IMG/VR virus record: IMGVR_UViG_3300033153_006571
Coordinates: 1-50,718 of that record
Length of the DNA stretch: 50,718 nucleotides
Source of the DNA: a virus
Taxonomy: Duplodnaviria; Caudoviricetes
Direction: 5' to 3' (one strand)
Both the position numbers and the translations under genes were made by a program. Below the pieces are notes generated by a model. The model worked only from the letters and a program-made list of their open reading frames with translations. It ran no database searches and was not told the DNA's origin. The first letter of the stretch is position 1. Every line of letters begins with the position of its first letter. Below are positions 4,529 through 50,126 of the stretch, in pieces.

Positions 4529-5245
4529 ATGAGCACTGTTTTTGTCGACAGGATAATAAGTGAGTTGGAGGATAAAAATTATAGAAGTGCCATAAATCGT
4601 AACGTAAGGAATTTAGTCGCTAAAGGTACAGTCGGAACAACAGAAATAACAATATGGGAAAGAGCCGAAAATTATACGTATTTATCGAGTGCTGCAACCA
4701 TAAGCATTCAATCTGATGATGAAAATGATACAATTGAAGGAACGGGAGCTAGGACTCTGACTGTGTTCGGTCTAAACGGAAGCTATGCAGAATTCGCAAC
4801 GACCATTAACATGGACGGCACTAATGCAGTTGAAATACCCAATGTATTAAGAATTTTCAATATGCGAGTAAGGACAGCGGGAACTGGCTGCAAAAACGCT
4901 GGTGTAATAACTGCCACATATGGCGGTACAATATATGCACAAATGAATGCCGGGAGAAACAGAACCTACATGGGTATTTATACTATACCTGCAGGAAGGA
5001 CGGGTTATTCACAGTTTTTCTATGTTAGTACTGCAGCGGGAAAAGACTGCACAGTTTGTGTCAATACTAGACGGTTTGGTGAAGTTTTTGTTTGCGACAT
5101 AGATATGCCGTCTTATGAGGATTTAAGGATATTTCACACGCCTGCACCTACCCCAATTGGGGAAAGAACAGACATAAAACTTTCGGCAGCAAGTTCTTTG
5201 TCAAGTGTTGATATAACAGCCGGTATGCAAATAATATTAAAATGA
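4529..5245 (+). CDS. Putative beta-rich virion structural protein
   Basis: 238 aa, T/G-rich; GGCGGTGA RBS; between ejection and lysis genes. Confidence 0.45.
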   Translation: MSTVFVDRIISELEDKNYRSAINRNVRNLVAKGTVGTTEITIWERAENYTYLSSAATISIQSDDENDTIEGTGARTLTVFGLNGSYAEFATTINMDGTNAVEIPNVLRIFNMRVRTAGTGCKNAGVITATYGGTIYAQMNAGRNRTYMGIYTIPAGRTGYSQFFYVSTAAGKDCTVCVNTRRFGEVFVCDIDMPSYEDLRIFHTPAPTPIGERTDIKLSAASSLSSVDITAGMQIILK

Positions 5246-6321: not shown

Positions 6322-6371
6322 AGCATTCCAAATTAATTAATAGCAAGGACTATTGTTATTTTAGGTATGCT
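6322..6371. other. Candidate attP site
   Basis: Imperfect 22-bp inverted arms (15/22 matches by eye) around CAAGGA, abutting the integrase stop codon. Confidence 0.55.
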
Positions 6372-7767
6372 ATACGTAAAACACAATATCTGTGTGCGTT
6401 TCAAAGACTGTAATTTTTTCAACCACTTCCATTAAAGCCTCTTTTTTTTGCTTCGGAGTGTTTGCCGCTTGGTATTGTTCCCACATATTTTTTATTTTGT
6501 TTTTTAACTTTTCTCGGTTCAACTTGCTTTTATTTTTGTCGTCCTTTACTTCTTCAAACTCTATGATTTTAAGATCAGTTTCAAGTTTTTCTTTAACTTT
6601 TTTGTACTCATCAAGACTAAAAACTTCTGCTAAATAGGCTTGTTTTGCACGTTCAAGTTCGGATAGTATCTTGTTTTTTCTATCAGAAAGATAGTCATTG
6701 ATGTTTACAGGCTTTAATTCGTTAATATTAATATGAGTCGGCATTTCCTTAAGTATGCCCTTGAGTTCGTTTATTACCTGTTTTTCAATGAGCTTGTATT
6801 GATACAGTTTTGAAAATCTACATTCTTTTTTATTATATCTAGCAAGCCTGCAAGTATAATAAAAATACTCTTTGCTTCCCTTCCCTCCGTTAGAACGCAT
6901 TTTTGATATACGCATAGGCGACCCGCAGTTGCCGCAATAAAGCAAACCCAATAAAAGAAATTGATTATAGTATATATGCCTTCTCGGACGTGGGCCAGCA
7001 CTTTGCCATTGTGTTTGTGCCTTTATGAATAATTCTTTGTCTATTATTGCAGGGAACACGTCAGGATAAATTTTTTTGCCCCATTTTAAATTTCCTATAT
7101 ATGTCGAATTTCTTAAAATATAAGTAATTTGACTGCTGTTCCATATCCCTATGCCTGTATATGTTGGCACATTATTATCATTCAGCCAGTTTGCTATCTT
7201 GGTAGTACCTTCTCCGCAAATGTACATGTTATAAATTTTCTGCACAATTGCAGCTTGACTTTTAACAACTTCTACTTTGCCACCTTTATTCTTATACCCA
7301 TACGCAACACGATTTAAAGCATAGCCCTGAGAAGCTTTTTCTTTTTGACCTTTTTTAACTTCTGCGGATAAATTTCTTATATAATACTCTCCTAAAAGTT
7401 CCAGCATTCCTTCCTGAAAAAATCCTATAGGAGAATCTTCTATCGGCTCAGTTATGCTTATAACATTAATATTTGCCTTTCTGAGCTGGTTTTTTATTCT
7501 CTGAGACAATTCTACCTTCCTTGCGAATCTATCGAATTTATGCACAAGAATGGCGTTAAAAGAACTCCTTTTTGCGTCGGATAACATTCTTTGAAATTCG
7601 GGCCTATCCTCTTTGGCTCCCGAAATTCCTTCGTCAATGTATTCATCATATATGGCTATTCTGTTTTGTTTACAATATTGTCGTAAAGCTTTAAGCTGCG
7701 CCGGAATGGAAAAACCTTCCCTGCTCTGCTCTTCGGTTGATACTCTTATATATATAGCCGCTTTCAT
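6370..7767 (-). CDS. Large serine recombinase (phage integrase)
   Basis: YIRVSTEEQ catalytic motif, DRFAR, recombinase domain, CGNCG...C...C zinc ribbon and coiled coil. Confidence 0.95.
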   Translation of the reverse strand: MKAAIYIRVSTEEQSREGFSIPAQLKALRQYCKQNRIAIYDEYIDEGISGAKEDRPEFQRMLSDAKRSSFNAILVHKFDRFARKVELSQRIKNQLRKANINVISITEPIEDSPIGFFQEGMLELLGEYYIRNLSAEVKKGQKEKASQGYALNRVAYGYKNKGGKVEVVKSQAAIVQKIYNMYICGEGTTKIANWLNDNNVPTYTGIGIWNSSQITYILRNSTYIGNLKWGKKIYPDVFPAIIDKELFIKAQTQWQSAGPRPRRHIYYNQFLLLGLLYCGNCGSPMRISKMRSNGGKGSKEYFYYTCRLARYNKKECRFSKLYQYKLIEKQVINELKGILKEMPTHININELKPVNINDYLSDRKNKILSELERAKQAYLAEVFSLDEYKKVKEKLETDLKIIEFEEVKDDKNKSKLNREKLKNKIKNMWEQYQAANTPKQKKEALMEVVEKITVFETHTDIVFYV

Positions 7768-7813: not shown

Positions 7814-8188
7814 TTAAGCATTTTTTAAAATTCTTCTCGTAGCAGTTACTTCATTGTAAGCTTTATCCTTTAAAACAAGTGCGTTAGCCATGTCAATAAG
7901 TATGTCTACGTTTGCATTAGATAAATTCATTGCTATATCCGCAAGTCGCTTTACTTTACTTGTATACTTTTCTTCTGTTTCTCCTATAAGTTCAGACACT
8001 GTCATGTTGAGCGCTTTGGCTACTTTGATAACAAAGTCTAATGCAGGGCTTTTGGATTTGCCTTTTTTAACATCATTTATTGTGTTTTGAGGTATGCCTG
8101 TAATTTTTGCCAACTTATATCCTGAAACACCTTTAGCTTCGAGCACTTCTTTAAGTCTGTCACCAAATAACCTATTTTCATTAAACAA
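7814..8188 (-). CDS. CI-like XRE/HTH repressor
   Basis: N-terminal HTH_3 (YKLAKITGIPQNTINDVKKGK); co-oriented with the integrase. Confidence 0.85.
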   Translation of the reverse strand: MFNENRLFGDRLKEVLEAKGVSGYKLAKITGIPQNTINDVKKGKSKSPALDFVIKVAKALNMTVSELIGETEEKYTSKVKRLADIAMNLSNANVDILIDMANALVLKDKAYNEVTATRRILKNA

Positions 8189-8226: not shown

Positions 8227-8354
8227 ATGATAATGGAGATACTACGTAATGTCAAGATAATTAAAGAAAAAACAATGATAAATGAGATAATTTATTACAA
8301 TGCACCGAAATAACAGTTTAAAAATTTTACATTAAACTGGAATTCCGGTATAAT
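8227..8354. promoter_or_regulatory. Divergent lysis/lysogeny promoters with operator-like palindromes
   Basis: Leftward TTGACA-17-TATCAT (8255 to 8227); rightward TTTACA-17-TATAAT (8326-8354) with ACTGGAATTCCGGT across the spacer; related ACCGAAATAACAGT at 8304. Confidence 0.7.
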
Positions 8355-8378
8355 GTAAAACAAGGGAGGAGATAAACT

Positions 8379-9029
8379 ATGGAAAAGCTAGTATTCTTAG
8401 AGCCTGATGACGTTCAGGAGGTACCATTTACCACATCAGAAGTTATTGCGGAGCATGGAAAGGTTGCTCATGATACTGTACAAAGATTGATAAGAAATTA
8501 TCGAAAGGACATTGAGGAATTTGGAATAATCGGATTTGAAATCCGTAAAACAAAATCTGGAAGAGGAAGACCTGAAAAAATATATCGTCTGAATGAAGAA
8601 CAGGCAACACTACTCATAACTTATATGCAAAATACATTACCTGTCCGCAAGTTTAAAAAGGCACTTGTCAAACAATTCTATATCATGCAAAAGGAATTAA
8701 CATCAAGGAAAGTTACCCGGGAAATAGGAAAGGAAGCACGGGAAGCCTTGACAAATGCAATTCAAGCATTACCCGAAAGTCCTCACAAGTCTATGAAATA
8801 TAAGCATTATACTGACTTGGCGTATAAAGTAGTGTTCGGCAAGAACGCAAAACAGCTTAGAGAGGAATACGGGCTTGGAAAGAATGACAACTTACGTAAT
8901 AGATTTTCCGCTTCTGAACTTGATAAGGTGCTGAAAGTTGAAAGACAGATAAGCGTACTCATTGAACTTGGGTACAGCTATCATGATATAAAGGCAGAGA
9001 TAAGCAGGAAGTATTTAATTTCTGCATAA
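8379..9029 (+). CDS. rha: Rha family phage regulatory protein
   Basis: TTSEVIAE, HDTVQRLIR, YRLNEEQATLL and FKKALVKQF motifs. Confidence 0.85.
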   Translation: MEKLVFLEPDDVQEVPFTTSEVIAEHGKVAHDTVQRLIRNYRKDIEEFGIIGFEIRKTKSGRGRPEKIYRLNEEQATLLITYMQNTLPVRKFKKALVKQFYIMQKELTSRKVTREIGKEAREALTNAIQALPESPHKSMKYKHYTDLAYKVVFGKNAKQLREEYGLGKNDNLRNRFSASELDKVLKVERQISVLIELGYSYHDIKAEISRKYLISA

Positions 9030-9062
9030 GACGGAGGGCACTGTTAAAAGTACCCTCCCGTC
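9030..9062. terminator. Hairpin between convergent rha and a small ORF
   Basis: GACGGAGGGCAC...GTACCCTCCCGTC imperfect stem. Confidence 0.55.
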
Positions 9063-9180
9063 ATTCAGGTGTCGAACGTCTGTGGCGCCGAACTTTTTTG
9101 CCATTGGCTTTACGGTAGCCTTTGACAACAACGATTTTTTTACGTTGCTTGCCGCTCACAGATGTTTTAGTTTTAGCCAT
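9061..9180 (-). CDS. Small very basic protein (39 aa, not in ORF track)
   Basis: MAKTKTSVSGKQRKKIVVVKGYRKANGKKVRRHRRSTPE; GGAGGTGA RBS; upstream TTGACA-17-TATACT promoter (9258 to 9230). Confidence 0.7.
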   Translation of the reverse strand: MAKTKTSVSGKQRKKIVVVKGYRKANGKKVRRHRRSTPE

Positions 9181-9272
9181 GTTATCACCTCCGTGCCATC
9201 AGGAGACACATGGCGCTGCACCTGACAATAGTATAACGGAAATACAATAATATGTCAAGGAGGCATGAAAAT

Positions 9273-9467
9273 ATGTTGGTCGGAGAGAAAATCAAGAAAT
9301 TAAGAGAGCTAAAGGAAATATCAAGATATAGGCTAAGCAAAGACACCGGAATCCCATATACAACATTAACGGATATCGAAAGTGGGAAAGTCAAGACTAT
9401 CAATAATGTTAATTTAAAGCTTGTATCGAATGCTTTGGGCATACCTGTATCAGAATTATTAGATTAG
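9273..9467 (+). CDS. Cro-like HTH regulator
   Basis: HTH_3 YRLSKDTGIPYTTLTDIESGK; AGGAGG RBS favours ATG 9273. Confidence 0.85.
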   Translation: MLVGEKIKKLRELKEISRYRLSKDTGIPYTTLTDIESGKVKTINNVNLKLVSNALGIPVSELLD

Positions 9468-9532
9468 GCAAGATGGGATTGGCATGTTTGTAAAGAAGTT
9501 TCATTAGATGAAGTTGATTGGAGGTGAATGCC

Positions 9533-9643
9533 ATGAACAAACTACCACCATTCAGATTCAAGATTAAGGGACAGGAAGGTTACAAAACAAAAGAGGAAAT
9601 TATTGCAGCTATAAAGGCCAAAAGGGAGCGTGATAAAAAGTAA
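9533..9643 (+). CDS. Small hypothetical protein (36 aa)
   Basis: GGAGGTGA RBS; MNKLPPFRFKIKGQEGYKTKEEIIAAIKAKRERDKK. Confidence 0.5.
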   Translation: MNKLPPFRFKIKGQEGYKTKEEIIAAIKAKRERDKK

Positions 9644-9690
9644 ATTGTTATGACGCTTGGGCATATAAGCTATATTCGTGAAGGTCTTGA

Positions 9691-9880
9691 AAGCTAACCA
9701 AAAGTCATGAGAGTACCATGATTTGAGAGTGAGCCATTGTATTAGAACGTAACAAAGAGTTGGAGTGAGCCATCGTTCTTGAGAGTACCACGCAAGCTGA
9801 GTGAATCATTGCACCCGAGAGTGCCAAGTGTCTAGAGTGAACCATATAACAAAGGAATACCATATGCCAGAAGCCAAATA
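9691..9880 (+). ncRNA. TIGR-like dual-repeat guide array, 5 x 36-nt units (upstream)
   Basis: Alternating GAGTGA(G/A)CCA-type and GAGAGTACCA-type 10-mers every 18 nt with unique 8-nt spacers; adjacent to a Nop-like gene. Confidence 0.85.
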
Positions 9881-9899
9881 AAAAAACAGGAGGTATATC

Positions 9900-10781
9900 A
9901 TGGAAAAGCAAATTTTAAACAATCTTATCAAGGATTTAAAGAAAGCGCGGACCGAATTAACAGACAAGGAAGCAAGATACTTTGTAGACTTGTATTATCA
10001 GGTGCAGGAATTTAGAAAGGCAATAGACAACCAGATACGCAGTATTGTTGAGCCTGTGTACTATGACGAGGACGGCAAAAAGCGTAAGCCCACAGAAGAA
10101 GAAAAAGAGAGTTATGTACCCGAGCCACACGATAACCTAAATGTATTATCGGACATCATACATACTTTTGAAACACGGATAAAGGTAATGCTTGATGTTT
10201 ACACAAACAATCATATAGTAGGAAGATGGGCTAAGTCCATATGTGGGATAGGTCCTGTAATAGCAGCTGGCTTGTTGGCACACATTGACATTGAGAAAGC
10301 ACCGACAGCAGGGCATATATGGAGCTACGCAGGGCTGAACCCACAGCAGAAGTGGGCGAAGGGGCAAAAAAGACCATGGAATGCTTCATTGAAAGTCCTT
10401 TGCTGGAAAATAGGAGATTCCTTTAAGAAGCAAAAGTCAAGAGAAAACGATATATACGGGAAAATCCTTGATGAAAGAAAAACATATGAACAGCAGAGGA
10501 ATGAGAACGGCGAATATGCGGAACAGGCAAAAAGCATATTGCAGAAAAAAAATATAGGTAAAAGCACAGACGCCTATAAATGGTATTCACAAGGCATGTT
10601 GCCACCTGCGCACATACAGCAGAGAGCAGAAAGATATGCAACTAAGATATTTCTTTCTCATCTTCATACTTTTTGGTATACATATCATTATCAAACAAGA
10701 CCACCGAAGCCTTTTGCAATCAGTATATTAGGCCATGCACATGAAATTGAGCCGCCAAATATGCACATGCTTGCAGAATGA
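9900..10781 (+). CDS. tasA: TasA-like Nop-domain RNA-guided binding protein (IS110 C-terminal-related, no nuclease domain seen)
   Basis: N-terminal coiled coil, then SICGIGPVIAAGLLAHI...IWSYAGLNP...WNASLK. No N-terminal DEDD RuvC, no IS110 SG motif and no HNH recognised. Flanked by 36-nt arrays. Confidence 0.8.
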   Translation: MEKQILNNLIKDLKKARTELTDKEARYFVDLYYQVQEFRKAIDNQIRSIVEPVYYDEDGKKRKPTEEEKESYVPEPHDNLNVLSDIIHTFETRIKVMLDVYTNNHIVGRWAKSICGIGPVIAAGLLAHIDIEKAPTAGHIWSYAGLNPQQKWAKGQKRPWNASLKVLCWKIGDSFKKQKSRENDIYGKILDERKTYEQQRNENGEYAEQAKSILQKKNIGKSTDAYKWYSQGMLPPAHIQQRAERYATKIFLSHLHTFWYTYHYQTRPPKPFAISILGHAHEIEPPNMHMLAE

Positions 10782-10788
10782 TAGTTTT

Positions 10789-10906
10789 GAGTGAGCCACG
10801 GGGAATGAGAGTACCACAACTCGAGAGTGAACCATGTTACCAGATGGTTTCATCGAAAGCGAGTGAACCAATATTTGAGGAAGTTTCATAAGTGCCGAGC
10901 TAAAAA
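10789..10906 (+). ncRNA. TIGR-like dual-repeat guide array, 3 x 36-nt units (downstream)
   Basis: GAGTGAGCCA-cggggaat-GAGAGTACCA-caactcga-GAGTGAACCA-tgttacca-GATGGTTTCA-tcgaaagc-GAGTGAACCA-atatttga-GGAAGTTTCA-taagtgcc-GAGCTAAAAA. Confidence 0.85.
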
Positions 10907-10986
10907 TCAAAAAAAAGGGGGGATATCATGCGCAATTACATAAGTACAGCAAAAACATAACGGAAGTAAAAGAAAGGAGAATAGAT

Positions 10987-11328
10987 ATGAGAAACAAAAA
11001 TCACTTTAGACAAGGAGATGTAGGCATCACTAAGACGAACAAAAAATTCGATAGCAAAAAGATGAAAAAAGTAAAGCCTGTAAACAATAGAGTGATATTA
11101 GCTTACGGTGAAGCAACTGGACATCATCATAGTATAGCATTAGCTGATTATCCCGAAACAGAATTATTTGAAATCGTAGGTGAGGCAGAAAAATTATTGA
11201 AAGTGGCTGAACCTGGTACTAAAATAACACATCAAGAACATGGAGCAATTTGGTTGTCGCCAGGCTGGTACGAAATTCATCATCAGGTTGAGTATGACCC
11301 GGAAGGCGAAAGGAGGGTAATGGATTGA
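10987..11328 (+). CDS. His-motif phage protein (usual partner of DUF6745 proteins)
   Basis: RQGDV, GEATGHHH and HQEH motifs; its stop overlaps the next start. Confidence 0.65.
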   Translation: MRNKNHFRQGDVGITKTNKKFDSKKMKKVKPVNNRVILAYGEATGHHHSIALADYPETELFEIVGEAEKLLKVAEPGTKITHQEHGAIWLSPGWYEIHHQVEYDPEGERRVMD

Positions 11329-12611
11329 TCACACATCTAACCGCAGAACAGGAAGCAAAATTTCCTGAATATGTGAAAAAGTGGACTGAGATAGGTGGAT
11401 GCACAAAGCCTGCTGATAGAGTTAATGCAGAAAAAGCTATTAATGTAATGTATAAAATAGCGGGCCTATATCCGCCTAAAATAATCTGGTGTGGAAGTCC
11501 TTTAGGAAACGCTTTGACAAGAGCGATTGTAATCAAAATAGCTTCGGTCGGGGATTCGGTATGGGCTTCGGTCAGAGATTCGGTCGTGGCTTCGGTCAGA
11601 GATTCGGTCGTGGCTTCGGTCGTAGCTTCGGTCGTAGCTTCGGTCGTGGATTCGGTCTGGGCTTCGGTCAGGGCTTCGGTCGGGGATTCGGTCTGGGCTT
11701 CGGTCGGGGATTCGGTCGGGGATTCGGTCGGGGCTTCGGTCGGGGATTCGGTATGGGCTTCGGTCAGAGATTCGGTCGTGGCTTCGGTCAGAGATTCGGT
11801 CGTGGCTTCGGCCTATGAATCGGTCGGGGCTTCGGTCATGGCTTCGGTCGTGGATTCGGTCTGGGCTTCGGTCAGGGCTTCGGTCGGGGATTCGGTCAGG
11901 GCTTCGGTCGGGGATTCGGTCTGGGCTTCGGTCGGGGATTCGGTCGGGGATTCGGTCTGGGCTTCGGTCAGAGATTCGGTCGGGATGTCAGTATATGGGC
12001 AACATGATGCGAATTGGTTAAGTTTTTTCGATTATTTTAGCAATGAACTTAGTATCAACCTTTCTCAACTTAGGGGATTATGGTTATTGTGCAAATCTGC
12101 AGGATGGGCACTGCCGCACAAAAATATTTGTTGGGTATCCGAGCGGCATAATATTTTAAGAAAAGACGAACAAGGGAGATTACATTGTGAAAATGGTGTA
12201 GCCTTACAATACCCTGATGGATGGAGTCTATATTATTATCATGGGGTAAAGGTGCCTGAATGGGTAATAGAAAAGCCTCATACTATAACACCTAATACAA
12301 TTTTTACGGAAAAAAATGCAGAAATAAGACGTGTTATGATTGAGAAGTTTGGACGGGAAAAGTTTTTGTCTTTACCTACTTGCAAAAAGATTCATACAGA
12401 CGAATGGGGCACGTTATACAGGAACGAGGCAATACGAGACATTAATAGCGAACCATACTGTTTCGTAAAAGTTGTAAATAGTACTCCGGAACCGGATGGA
12501 ACATTTAGGGATTATATCCTGCGCGTCAGTCCGCGTTGTAAAACTGCGCAAGAAGCTGTACAAAGCACTTTCCCTCGTATAGAAAATTTTATGCCTATAG
12601 TTGAAAAATAG
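11325..12611 (+). CDS. DUF6745-like protein with SVxx tetrapeptide repeats
   Basis: YGQHDANWL, GRLHCENG, NAEIRRVMIE and VVNSTPEPDG motifs. Confidence 0.75.
   Translation: MITHLTAEQEAKFPEYVKKWTEIGGCTKPADRVNAEKAINVMYKIAGLYPPKIIWCGSPLGNALTRAIVIKIASVGDSVWASVRDSVVASVRDSVVASVVASVVASVVDSVWASVRASVGDSVWASVGDSVGDSVGASVGDSVWASVRDSVVASVRDSVVASAYESVGASVMASVVDSVWASVRASVGDSVRASVGDSVWASVGDSVGDSVWASVRDSVGMSVYGQHDANWLSFFDYFSNELSINLSQLRGLWLLCKSAGWALPHKNICWVSERHNILRKDEQGRLHCENGVALQYPDGWSLYYYHGVKVPEWVIEKPHTITPNTIFTEKNAEIRRVMIEKFGREKFLSLPTCKKIHTDEWGTLYRNEAIRDINSEPYCFVKVVNSTPEPDGTFRDYILRVSPRCKTAQEAVQSTFPRIENFMPIVEK
11541..11987 (+). repeat. Coding 12-bp tandem repeat G(C/A)TTCGGTnnnn
   Basis: More than 30 visible units encoding (A/D)SVx. 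Confidence 0.95.
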
Positions 12612-12990: not shown

Positions 12991-13467
12991 GTGGATAGAC
13001 AGAAACTTGATAAAATATTGCGGGAGCATAAGAAATGGGTAAACAATGAAGGCGGGAGGAAAGCAGACCTGAGAGGGGCAGACCTGAGAGGAGCAGGCCT
13101 GAGAGGAGCAGACCTGAGAAAAGCAGACCTGAGAAAAGCAGACCTGAGAGAAGCAGACCTGAGAGAAGCAGACCTGAGAGAAGCAGACCTGAGAATGGCA
13201 GTCCTGAGAATGGCAGTCCTGAGAGAAGCAGACCTGAGAGAAGCAGACCTGAGAAAAGCAGACCTGAGAGAAGCAGACATTGATTTTTCAGCTTGGCCTT
13301 TATGGTGCTGCAGTTTCGATGTGGTAGTTGACAAAAGGATAGCTGCGCAGTTAGCATATCATTTTTGCAGGCTTGTCTGTGATGATGATGAAGTCAAGAA
13401 CGCCCAGAAAGCACTTAAGAAAATTGCAAACCAGTTTCACAGAGTCGATGAATGCGGGGAGGTTTAG
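12991..13467 (+). CDS. Pentapeptide repeat protein
   Basis: [15 protein letters not shown] repeats from a 15-bp tandem unit at about 13063-13278. Confidence 0.9.
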
Positions 13468-17185: not shown

Positions 17186-17926
17186 ATGAAAATAACAAAG
17201 GAATTACTTCAAAAAAAAGGTGCTTGCAAGAGAGGTATAGAGTGGTTTAAGGAACGCTTTCCGAATGGCACTACTATTGAAGAAGCAGTAAAAGAACTGG
17301 CGGAAGGAAATATTGATACTGATTTTGTGTGGTGGTTTTATGAACATGTGCAACAAGACGCTAGATTGTATGTTCTATGTGGCGTAATTAATTCATTCGG
17401 CGTGAATGGGTCTTATGGCGTGAATGGGTCTTATGGCGTGAGTTGGTCTAATGGCGTGAATGTGTCTTATGGCGTGAATAGGTCTGATGGCGTGAATGGG
17501 TCTTATGGCGTGAGTTGGTCTAATGGCGTGAGTTGGTCTAATGGCGTGAATGGGTCTGATGGCGTGAGTTGGTCTTATGGCGTGAATGGGTCTTATGGGG
17601 TAATTAACAGCTATGGAGTCGACGCCGCTTTATTTTTGGCGAATAAGCCACGCACTTACAGCATATTTGGCAATGAAGTGTCGGAAGAAAGGTTTATTGA
17701 GGTTAGAAAGAGTTTTTTTGAAAAACTTAATAACTGGAAGCCGACATTTAACAATATTAAGACGAAACATGGTTCAGACTGGAAAGAAGCGCCCATAAAA
17801 AACGCAAAAGCACTATCAAAAGATGAGGCATGGAAGGATATGCCGAAAGAAGCCATAGAATACCTTAAGTCATTGCCCGAATTTGATTCTGACATATTCT
17901 ATGAAGTGACAGGGATAAGAGCGTAA
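17186..17926 (+). CDS. Hexapeptide-repeat (GVNGSY/GVSWSN) protein
   Basis: 18-bp tandem repeats at about 17381-17620; C-terminal LPEFDSDIFYEVTGI. Confidence 0.7.
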   Translation: MKITKELLQKKGACKRGIEWFKERFPNGTTIEEAVKELAEGNIDTDFVWWFYEHVQQDARLYVLCGVINSFGVNGSYGVNGSYGVSWSNGVNVSYGVNRSDGVNGSYGVSWSNGVSWSNGVNGSDGVSWSYGVNGSYGVINSYGVDAALFLANKPRTYSIFGNEVSEERFIEVRKSFFEKLNNWKPTFNNIKTKHGSDWKEAPIKNAKALSKDEAWKDMPKEAIEYLKSLPEFDSDIFYEVTGIRA

Positions 17927-20680: not shown

Positions 20681-20875
20681 GTGCAGGATTCAAAAAATTT
20701 GCGGTGTTCTTTGTGTTTTCGGCAAGCAGTAAGGTCAATTTATTATGCGGATAAGAAAACGAAAATTAGGGCACTTTTTTGCCCTTCCTGTGGGCAATTA
20801 GAAACAGAACAGGGAATAAGAATTTGGAGAGGGAGAGTGAAGAGAAATGAAAAAAGAGAACGGATATTGGGTTGA
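20681..20875 (+). CDS. Small zinc-ribbon protein
   Basis: CSLC...CPSC; GTG start after a GGAGGG RBS. Confidence 0.55.
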   Translation: MQDSKNLRCSLCFRQAVRSIYYADKKTKIRALFCPSCGQLETEQGIRIWRGRVKRNEKRERILG

Positions 20876-21359
20876 CGGAAATGATAATAGATGGAATATA
20901 AATAAATACACTAAGCACAGAGCAGAAGAATTAAGCAAATCATTAATTAATTGTACTAACTGCAGTGATTGCAGTGATTGCAGGGGATGCAGGGGTTGCA
21001 TTGGTTGCATTGATTGCATTGGTTGCAATGATTGCAGGGGTTGCAGTGATTGCAGGAGTTGCAGTGATTGTCTTGATTGCAGGAGTTGCAGTGATTGCCT
21101 TGATTGCATTGGTTGCAGGGGATATACTGGATTTTCACATATGGCATACGGAACACAACCAATCGGCCCTCGGTCTGACGTTGCGCATTTTTATTACTAC
21201 AACAAAAAAATATATGCGAAGTGCGGATGCTTTTGGGGAACTATAGATGAATTTGAAGAAAAAGTTAATAGTACACATGGCACAAATCAATATGCCAAAC
21301 AATATTTTGCAGAAATTGAAAAGGTAAGAGAATTATTTAAGGAGAGTGTAGGGGAATGA
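20847..21359 (+). CDS. Cys-rich Cxx-repeat protein
   Basis: 9-bp tandem unit TGCxxxxxx at about 20951-21120; C-terminal CGCFWGTIDEFEEKV. Confidence 0.7.
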   Translation: MKKENGYWVDGNDNRWNINKYTKHRAEELSKSLINCTNCSDCSDCRGCRGCIGCIDCIGCNDCRGCSDCRSCSDCLDCRSCSDCLDCIGCRGYTGFSHMAYGTQPIGPRSDVAHFYYYNKKIYAKCGCFWGTIDEFEEKVNSTHGTNQYAKQYFAEIEKVRELFKESVGE

Positions 21360-39510: not shown

Positions 39511-39867
39511 ATGTTTATACTTAATACAAAAATAGTTGACAATGACTATTCTCGGCTAAATGTAGCTATTCAGCTTATTCCTATTGAAAAATATGAGGGA
39601 TATAATCTCAATGACAATTTCTATGGCGGGAGAGTTCAGTGCATAGGCAAGATGAAAGATTCACCAGTTTTACTTTTGATAAACAATCAAATTGACGGAT
39701 TGCAGGTTGTTGATACTGCAATTAATGAGCTTGAAGATTTAAGCCTAACTGTTCTAAAGAAAATTGCCAAGGGTAGAAAGCTTAAATTAGATTATAGACA
39801 TGCAACAAAGATAGATGTTGTAAAAGCTTTAAAAGAATCATTGCACGAAGTAAAAAAAGCTGCATAG
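39511..39867 (+). CDS. Hypothetical protein
   Basis: AGGAGG RBS; short helical C-terminal domain. Confidence 0.55.
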   Translation: MFILNTKIVDNDYSRLNVAIQLIPIEKYEGYNLNDNFYGGRVQCIGKMKDSPVLLLINNQIDGLQVVDTAINELEDLSLTVLKKIAKGRKLKLDYRHATKIDVVKALKESLHEVKKAA

Positions 39868-49603: not shown

Positions 49604-49691
49604 TACTATTTTTATAGTAATTTAGTCCTATTTTTTAGAAAAACCTTCAAAAAATCATTTATAATGTAAGAAAAAAAAAGGGGGCTTGTTT

Positions 49692-50126
49692 ATGTTAAAC
49701 AAAGTATTAAAAAAAGCAAAGAGTAAGAAGGGATTTACGCTTATTGAATTGATTGTAGTAATTTCTATTTTGGCGATATTGGCACTTTTGATTGTGCCAA
49801 GAATTATGGGATTTATAGGAACTGCGAGACAAAATGCAACAAATTCTAATGCAAGATTACTTTATAACGCAGCAATATTAGCTATATCGGCTGATGAAAT
49901 TACTTTGCCTACGGAAACAAATGCTGAATGTACAACCTTAGCAGACGTAGATGCATTAGCAACAGGAGAGGACCAAGATGGATTATCGGGATTTTTGGAT
50001 GAATGGCCGAAGGATGGAGATGGAAAACCTTTAAGATTAGTTATCAGTCCAGATGGTGAAGTTGATGTGGAAGATTCAGAGGTTGCAACTGGAGAAGGTA
50101 ACAATTTAGCTGGTAAAGATTTATAA
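49692..50126 (+). CDS. Type IV pilin-like protein
   Basis: Class III signal peptide KKG/FTLIELIVVISILAILALLIVP. Confidence 0.9.
   Translation: MLNKVLKKAKSKKGFTLIELIVVISILAILALLIVPRIMGFIGTARQNATNSNARLLYNAAILAISADEITLPTETNAECTTLADVDALATGEDQDGLSGFLDEWPKDGDGKPLRLVISPDGEVDVEDSEVATGEGNNLAGKDL

Follow-up and report, generated by a model that had tools for sequence, protein, structure and literature searches.

What does a phage carry when an intact gene for a 293-residue protein is flanked on both sides by short runs of alternating repeats? The locus that raises this question lies at positions 9691 to 10906 of a 50,718-nucleotide (nt) window, the whole stretch of DNA analysed here (IMG/VR virus record IMGVR_UViG_3300033153_006571, Caudoviricetes). 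We conclude that it is very probably a dual-repeat TIGR-TasA system of a temperate phage, in which the enclosed gene, tasA, encodes a nuclease-free, RNA-guided protein and the repeats form arrays of its guides. The argument rests on the architecture of the repeats, the family and fold of the protein, and the recurrence of both together in related loci.

Sequence reading places two + strand arrays, at 9691-9880 and 10789-10906, on either side of the open reading frame (ORF) at 9900-10781. The half-period is strictly 18 nt in both, with zero indels, and two types of 10-nt repeat, GAGTGARCCA and GAGAGTACCA or GAGAGTGCCA, alternate with 8-nt spacers between them. TIGR array 1 (9691-9880) consists of five 36-nt units, U1 to U5, starting at 9691, 9727, 9763, 9799 and 9835. 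TIGR array 2 (10789-10906) begins 7 nt past the tasA TGA stop codon (10779-10781) and holds three units, D1 to D3, starting at 10789, 10825 and 10861. Each unit runs from an edge repeat (GAGTGARCCA type) through the 8-nt spacer A and a loop repeat (GAGAGTACCA type) to the 8-nt spacer B. In array 1, edge-type repeats stand at 9691, 9727, 9763, 9799, 9835 and 9871 (9871-9880), and loop-type repeats at 9709, 9745 (GAACGTAACA), 9781, 9817 and 9853 (AGGAATACCA). In array 2, the edges are at 10789, 10825, 10861 and 10897 (10897-10906; GAGCTAAAAA), and the loops at 10807, 10843 (GATGGTTTCA) and 10879 (GGAAGTTTCA). Three terminal edges are degenerate: 9691 in its 5' part, 9871, and 10897 in its 3' part. 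All 16 spacers differ from one another, with a minimum pairwise distance of 2. An earlier sequence-only reading had described this indel-free alternation, the five units upstream and the three that begin at 10789 just after the stop codon, the 16 different spacers, and a unit phase with the GAGTGARCCA type at the array ends; each of these statements is borne out. Its count of up to eight guides holds as an upper bound, with only four of the eight units fully canonical.

Those four units, in which both flanking repeats are canonical, are U1, U3, U4 and D1. Canonical copies of the edge and the loop alike carry GAG at the 5' end and CCA (box C) at the 3' end, which is what a symmetric protein dimer requires according to the description of the family (PMC12045711). 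Their length of 10 nt lies within the 8-12 nt given for the two distinct, alternating repeats of dual-repeat TIGR arrays, whose units measure about 36 nt.

The periodicity of the arrays is far beyond chance. Within the window, GAGWGWRCCA is matched exactly at 11 places, 10 of which are on the + strand inside the two arrays, and at up to one mismatch there are 26 matches compared with 13.15 ± 3.45 in shuffled sequence. At the same tolerance seven matches fall within 200 nt in a single phase modulo 18, a number for which 200 shuffles gave a maximum of 1 (196 shuffles) or 2 (four shuffles). Tandem Repeats Finder returned no rows for the arrays, because only 20 of every 36 positions repeat, and Rfam gave no match at E ≤ 1 in 9000-11500. 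The two arrays also share one phase modulo 18; none of the nine other loci in which units flank the gene on either side does so, and we therefore regard the shared phase as coincidence.

The protein points to the same family. TasA (293 residues, ATG at 9900, + strand) scores 205.3 bits (E 1.1e-60; cut-off 100) with the NCBIfam model NF052498 (TIGR_Tas_endo, 'TIGR-Tas system RNA-guided endonuclease'). Among PDB sequences, phmmer finds TasR (9mty, E 4.5e-13) and TasH (E 5.4e-10), and a profile search finds the same two proteins at 3.3e-23 and 2.4e-13, respectively. An AlphaFold2 model built from 40 homologues (pLDDT 88.2, pTM 0.83) comprises a coiled coil at about residues 2-103, with an insertion at 51-75, and a Nop domain at about residues 104-293. 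When this model is compared with solved structures by Foldseek, TasH and TasR chains occupy ranks 1 to 10 (probability 1.00, TM 0.50-0.68), the IS621 and ISCro4 recombinases come next, and Nop56/58 matches weakly (3nvi, rank 48, E 2.2). The N-terminal 103 residues are modelled as a helical coiled coil with a small hairpin insertion. That insertion, 25 residues at the tip of the coiled coil (residues 51-75; 10050-10124) and modelled as a beta hairpin, is clade-specific; among the 120 closest homologues only 18 share it.

No HNH or RuvC domain was found in TasA by Pfam at E ≤ 1, and the model accounts for all 293 residues. With neither a nuclease signature nor room for one, the protein belongs to the TasA subtype. 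The sole Pfam match at E ≤ 1 is Transposase_20 (residues 112-152, 28.8 bits), which covers the GIGPVIAAGLL...WSYAGL core. The sequence-only reading had recognised this core beside a coiled coil, had seen no RuvC or HNH domain, and had proposed a phage TasA whose fold should resemble Nop and IS110 proteins and whose homologues should also be flanked by arrays. The Pfam match and the model agree with the first two points, and a family score at twice the cut-off, the Tas fold and the missing nuclease uphold the identity. The structural ranking fits the expected fold, with Tas proteins closest, and the arrays beside homologues are described below.

Relatives of TasA are very numerous. Of 5,815 candidates, 5,167 proteins are Tas relatives at E ≤ 1e-10, the closest 73% identical, and IMG/VR holds at least 537. 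Only three of the 50,697 deposited phage records gave a tblastn match to TasA (two Salicola CGphi29 records and Microcystis Mvi-JY20), and single-protein scans of genomes, viruses and metagenomes gave 1, 3 and 3 loci, none above 54% identity. Megablast of 8300-11400 against the 50,697 phage records returned no match, and TerL reached 31% identity at most by tblastn. Arrays with a period of 33-38 nt occur within 600 nt of the gene in 80 of 87 related loci (16 upstream, 72 downstream, 8 both), a set that includes some redundant contigs; 38 of its 41 loci with full flanks are distinct. Related loci hold up to 40 parsed units, and spacers of other lengths, which break the phase, occur in their arrays. 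Several of them share the repeat pair GAGAGTNCCA/GAGTGAACCA with this locus, and in phages of unrelated background the pair accompanies tasA and not the nearby regulators.

Which repeat is the edge and which the loop can be judged from the ends of the arrays. Published TIGR arrays are described as opening and closing with truncated edge repeats (PMC12045711). The SpTIGR array closes with a AAGCGAGCCA-type repeat that is truncated and precedes a terminator hairpin, and by the same rule the AAGCGAGCCA-type repeat is the SpTIGR edge. Here the GAGTGARCCA type would be the edge, because it occupies the array ends at 9691, 9871, 10789 and 10897. The assignment is thus made by analogy with SpTIGR and by the truncated-edge rule.

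We propose a mechanism drawn from characterised relatives. The arrays would be transcribed together with the early rightward operon, and dimers of TasA would attach to the precursor where the repeats end in CCA (box C) and begin with GA(G) (box D). Cutting of the precursor within each edge repeat would release 36-nt tigRNAs; guides of this length are reported to co-purify with TasA, TasR and TasH (PMC12045711). Each ribonucleoprotein would then recognise a contiguous 16-bp DNA site, where spacer A would pair to one of its strands and spacer B to the other, and the nuclease-free complex would bind there and block transcription or replication without cutting. Binding without cutting is suggested here by homology. 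MbTasA is described in a preprint as binding DNA and repressing transcription, with no cleavage (10.64898/2026.09.09.750476).

The geometry of such a site can be deduced from a published example. The two spacers are reported to target opposite strands in tandem, and E. coli wcaD is reported to be cut by TaTasR with tigRNA1 (both PMC12045711). As inputs we took this natural wcaD target and the TaTIGR array from Table S1 of the same paper. Spacer B of the first TaTIGR unit has a single occurrence in the 25-kb colanic-acid region, and it lies within E. coli wcaD. Along the wcaD strand that carries the spacer B sequence, the 9 nt after it agree with the reverse complement of spacer A at 5 of 9 positions, with two wobble pairs in addition; three alternative arrangements give 0 to 3 of 9. 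It follows that a site reads 5'-spacer A and then the reverse complement of spacer B, which agrees with the reported 8-nt 3' overhangs (PMC12045711).

Several observations weigh against the TIGR-TasA reading. A diverged repeat is present in four of the eight units: U2 through its loop GAACGTAACA, D2 through its loop GATGGTTTCA, U5 through the loop AGGAATACCA and a degenerate last edge, and D3 through the loop GGAAGTTTCA and a truncated last edge. Box D has the sequence GA(G) here, as opposed to UG in the TasR arrays described in PMC12045711; the same source reports that box divergence is tolerated if the boxes of edge and loop covary. A scan for terminator-like sites found none after either array, although a terminator after the array is described as typical (PMC12045711). 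The catalytic Tyr289 of SpTasH aligns with Phe272 of TasA. Finally, no target was found in the phage itself, in the 87 related loci or in IMG/VR.

The alternative that survives best, which we nonetheless consider improbable, draws on some of these points and holds that the locus is a decaying or inactive TIGR-TasA remnant, with short, eroding arrays, a lost processing tyrosine and no working guides. In its favour are the small number of units (5 + 3, compared with the up to 40 of related loci), the diverged repeats in half of them, Phe272 at the position of the catalytic tyrosine, and the resemblance of D3 to a terminal remnant common to other arrays. The protein argues otherwise: its ORF is intact, it retains every invariant column of the 40-sequence alignment, and its fold is predicted with confidence. 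Four units, moreover, are fully canonical.

The tyrosine deserves closer attention. Guide maturation by SpTasH is attributed to Tyr289 and His296 in a flexible C-terminal loop (PMC13421893). This Tyr/His dyad is reported to be conserved among dual-repeat systems. We aligned the SpTasH sequence, from the Salicola phage record, to the TasA profile (hhalign probability 97.5). His296 aligns with H279 of TasA, a His in 120 of the 120 closest homologues, and H281 is kept in 118 of them. The column of F272 holds Tyr in 85 of these homologues and Phe in 35 (29%), so that Phe is a common natural variant and not a lone lesion. The processing loop is the only stretch modelled with low confidence (block 271-280, mean pLDDT 50). 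In the Table S1 sequences of PMC12045711, FpTasA, ParTasR and SpTasH have Y-x6-H, and TaTasR has W-x6-H; guides of TaTasR are nevertheless reported to be processed in a TasR-dependent manner (PMC12045711). Because Phe is found in 35 homologues and the guides of TaTasR, with its Trp, are still processed, we read Phe at this position from the alignment as a frequent natural variant that does not prove inactivity.

A cluster of observations on individual units may be recorded beside this discussion. The D3 region (10871-10896) resembles, with a 2-nt shift, a near-terminal array stretch in four related contigs (L029:2698, L030/L031:5748 and L036:1767). It also resembles a stretch outside any array in another contig (L001:8343-8368), 1.4 kb downstream of tasA there, at 15 of 16 spacer positions and 6 of the 10 positions in between. 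D3 may thus represent what is left of a conserved array end. In contig L065, the unit that comes first after tasA (4799-4824) has nearly the same spacer pair as U2 (window 9727-9772), with 2 mismatches in 16; the pairs are in the same order and in array register, and the TasA of L065 is only about 50% identical and accompanied by another repeat type. An in-register match of this kind would arise by chance with a probability roughly estimated at 0.002 to 0.03, and the pair could reflect an ancestral unit or a conserved target. Lastly, spacer A of U4 (9809-9826) and of D2 (10835-10852) equals, with 2 mismatches, the reverse complement of the final 8 nt of the loop repeat that comes next. Across the family this holds for 7 of 890 guides, within the control range of 1 to 11, and we treat it as chance.

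A second alternative is very unlikely: that the 18-nt repeats are iterons or operator arrays for a phage regulator, or the coding repeats of minus-strand frames, and not guide-RNA genes. The arrays do adjoin regulator genes in the switch region, and minus-strand ORFs of 68 and 60 residues span both of them. Set against this, two alternating repeats with CCA ends, 8-nt variable spacers and a neighbouring Tas gene make up the published TIGR signature (PMC12045711). The odd-length spacers of related arrays would disrupt any reading frame, and the repeat pair travels with tasA instead of with the adjacent regulators. The two open frames, 9705-9911 (68 aa) and 10728-10910 (60 aa), run antisense through the arrays and show reiterated MAHS/MVHS motifs that stem from the repeats; gene callers may annotate them as proteins.

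The least credible alternative, to which we give next to no weight, is that the gene is a fragment of an IS110-family transposase and its flanking repeats are transposon ends or chance: it can call on the Pfam Transposase_20 match, on the name 'transposase' of PHROG 4285, which TasA matches, and on relatives labelled 'IS110 family transposase' by their sources, but the IS110 equivalog NF033542 scores only 32.3 bits against a cut-off of 140 and matches over profile positions 121-264 of 343 alone, so that the DEDD catalytic domain is absent, while the score with the TIGR-Tas model is much higher, the IS621 recombinase ranks below solved Tas structures, and the repeat periodicity is far from chance and recurs beside homologues. 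A CRISPR array was also considered and rejected, as it would need one type of repeat, about 25-36 nt long, with spacers of comparable size, in contrast to the two 10-nt repeats and 8-nt spacers found here (compare PMC12045711).

Returning to the TIGR-TasA system, we searched for its targets, comparing each search with wrong-geometry controls. In the phage itself, allowing up to 2 mismatches and gaps of 0-2, there was no exact site; the best candidate, U2 at 39522 with 1 mismatch and a 1-nt gap, was rejected when its geometry was later found to be wrong. The 890 unique guides from 80 loci, searched against their own ±4 kb at up to 2 mismatches, gave 19 and 24 sites in the candidate geometries and 15 and 32 in impossible ones. 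Against 633 kb of loci, the corresponding numbers were 0 and 1 versus 2 and 0 for exact matches, and 53 and 64 versus 49 and 56 with one mismatch. Among exact 16-mers in IMG/VR in the correct geometry, D1 has 3 matches, U4 has 1 and U3 has 17, of which 11 belong to one phage lineage; for U3 the wrong geometry yields 19, and there is no enrichment. Natural targets of TIGR-Tas systems are described as mostly unknown (PMC12045711 and the preprint). Most likely, the targets are DNA of the host or of rival mobile elements, engaged at the onset of lytic growth.

The genomic setting is that of a temperate phage of 50.7 kb. On the minus strand lie a gene for a large serine recombinase (6370-7767; phrog_95 integrase, E 5e-111) and a CI-like repressor gene (7814-8188), which identifies the phage as temperate and shows its lytic side to be that of tasA. 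A + strand promoter-like site (8326-8354; TTTACA-17-TATAAT, 11 of 12 consensus positions) faces a divergent site at 8255-8227 and is presumed to be the early rightward promoter of the lysogeny switch. The + strand order is then a Rha/Ant-like regulator, a Cro-like gene, a 36-aa ORF, array 1, tasA and array 2. The Cro-like gene (9252-9467, +) encodes a helix-turn-helix regulator that matches PHROG transcription-regulator and repressor families (E 4e-11 to 9e-06), and the 36-aa ORF (9533-9643, +), between it and array 1, matches no family. After array 2 come early genes for a sigma factor and for SbcC-like, RecT, DnaD-like and RusA-like proteins, followed by the terminase, portal, structural and lysis genes.

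Within this order, the + strand promoter-like site nearest upstream of the locus by consensus match is at 9222-9251 (CTGACA-18-AATAAT, 10 of 12), a candidate identified by that match alone. A terminator-like site lies at 9068-9089, and the site scan found none between 9467 and 11325. Co-transcription with the early rightward operon, as the sequence-only reading had it, is the simplest reading of this gene order and of the stretch free of terminator-like sites; the gene order thus fits, and expression from that operon is what we infer. The ribosome-binding site of tasA (AGGAGG, 9889-9894, +) lies 5 nt before the ATG and 8 nt past the last degenerate edge.

Two further features were seen next to the arrays. 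Upstream of array 1, a weak promoter-like pair at 9648-9676 (TTATGA, 17 nt, TATATT; 8 of 12), read by eye and below the threshold of the scan, would place a start just before the edge at 9691. After array 2, the stretch 10915-10961 contains a purine-rich run that resembles a ribosome-binding site (AAGGGGGG), an ATG at 10929 and a 10-codon ORF; the next gene begins at 10987.

Related loci have comparable surroundings, their neighbours in the 38 distinct loci being mostly early or DNA-metabolism genes. The nearest IMG/VR relative among the matches listed (L010, 59% identity) has the same gene context as this locus, with an Ant-like gene upstream and an SbcC-like gene downstream, and the last truncated edge of its array leads directly into the ribosome-binding site of the next gene. 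In seven of the 38 (L065, L066, L067, L075, L079, L080 and L083), a ParB-like gene and then a helicase or methyltransferase gene follow just after the array. This association matches that described by Faure et al. (PMC12045711); no ParB-like gene stands at that place in the window.

Elsewhere in the window, four early-region ORFs contain long in-frame tandem repeats: 11325-12611 (period 24/36 nt), 12991-13467 (15), 17186-17923 (18/36) and 20847-21356 (18). A pentapeptide-repeat protein and a Cys-rich CSDC/CRGC repeat are among them. They have no relation to the TIGR arrays but would confuse a periodicity scan. The N-terminal part of the final ORF (49686-50123) matches phage 'pilin' families (E 9.5e-08).

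How does the locus compare with known systems? It is closest in kind to FpTIGR-TasA of Flavonifractor plautii (Faure et al. 2025, PMC12045711), which is likewise phage-borne and has a solo coiled-coil and Nop protein with no nuclease. The two differ in that 10-nt repeats and 8-nt spacers give a guide of 16 nt here and FpTIGR is described with 18 nt, variable; in the very short arrays of the present locus (5 + 3 units), with no terminator after them; and in the Phe at the dyad tyrosine position, where FpTasA has Y-x6-H. SpTIGR-TasH of Salicola phage CGphi29 (NC_020844; PDB 9w03, 9w04, 21kl) shares the 10-nt repeats, the 8-nt spacers and the CCA ends. Its edge core is CGAGCCA, compared with TGAGCCA here, and its repeats start with AAG. 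SpTasH has a homologous Nop domain (hhalign 97.5) and is the best structural match to TasA; however, it carries an N-terminal HNH nuclease, absent from TasA, and cuts DNA, and it has Tyr289/His296 where TasA has Phe272/His279.

By their description, MbTasA and the catalytically dead TasR repressors (Xu et al. 2026, bioRxiv 10.64898/2026.09.09.750476) are alike in being nuclease-free Tas effectors, and the guide-dependent block of transcription by DNA binding that we propose is taken from that work. According to the preprint, MbTasA derives from a Minisyncoccota bacterium, and its own tigRNA was used to test it. The IS110/IS621 bridge-RNA recombinases share an RNA-binding Nop-like domain (Pfam Transposase_20), but they use a single bridge RNA and a DEDD domain, in contrast to the short-guide arrays and missing DEDD domain of this locus. 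The archaeal and eukaryotic Nop5 proteins (Nop56/58) of box C/D small nucleolar ribonucleoproteins are described as resembling Tas proteins in their coiled-coil dimer, their Nop domain and the box C/D-like motifs on either side of their guides (PMC12045711); their structural match to TasA is marginal, a fibrillarin or L7Ae partner is absent here, and the target would be DNA, not RNA.

The identification is correct but concerns a system that is already known, and the family gains no new branch from it. The first account of TIGR-Tas dates from 2025 (PMC12045711), and the 2026 preprint describes TasA as an RNA-guided repressor. In PMC12045711, the sheet 'ProteinInfo' of Table S1 ('all TIGR systems') has a row with the identical 293-aa sequence, which is named 'transposase' there with NCBI bacteria as its source. 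Arrays on one side of the gene, upstream or downstream, or on both have likewise been described (PMC12045711; 10.64898/2026.09.09.750476).

We also raise a more speculative and rather unlikely extension of the TIGR-TasA reading. In it, array 1 would lie in the 5' leader of tasA and array 2, with no terminator, would run into the next gene. The guide arrays might be part of an early polycistronic transcript, as opposed to a gene cassette of their own, that TasA-dependent maturation cuts on both sides of tasA, with ribonucleoproteins silencing the DNA of the host or of a rival prophage only at the onset of lytic growth, and the Phe variant might signal another maturation chemistry. If this were so, guide maturation would cut the early mRNA and tie the production of guides to the messages on the cro side and to the early messages downstream. 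The clade with the Phe variant may then mature its guides by other means, for example His279/His281 or a host RNase.

TIGR-Tas systems form a new, actively studied class of compact RNA-guided DNA binders that are free of a protospacer adjacent motif (PAM), and the contribution of this locus to their study is modest. It offers an example of the Phe variant at the position of the processing tyrosine and a complete temperate phage genome with a minimal TasA system, of at most eight guides, placed directly behind the lysis-lysogeny switch. Once its host is known, the locus would be a small and tractable model for how phages use TasA.

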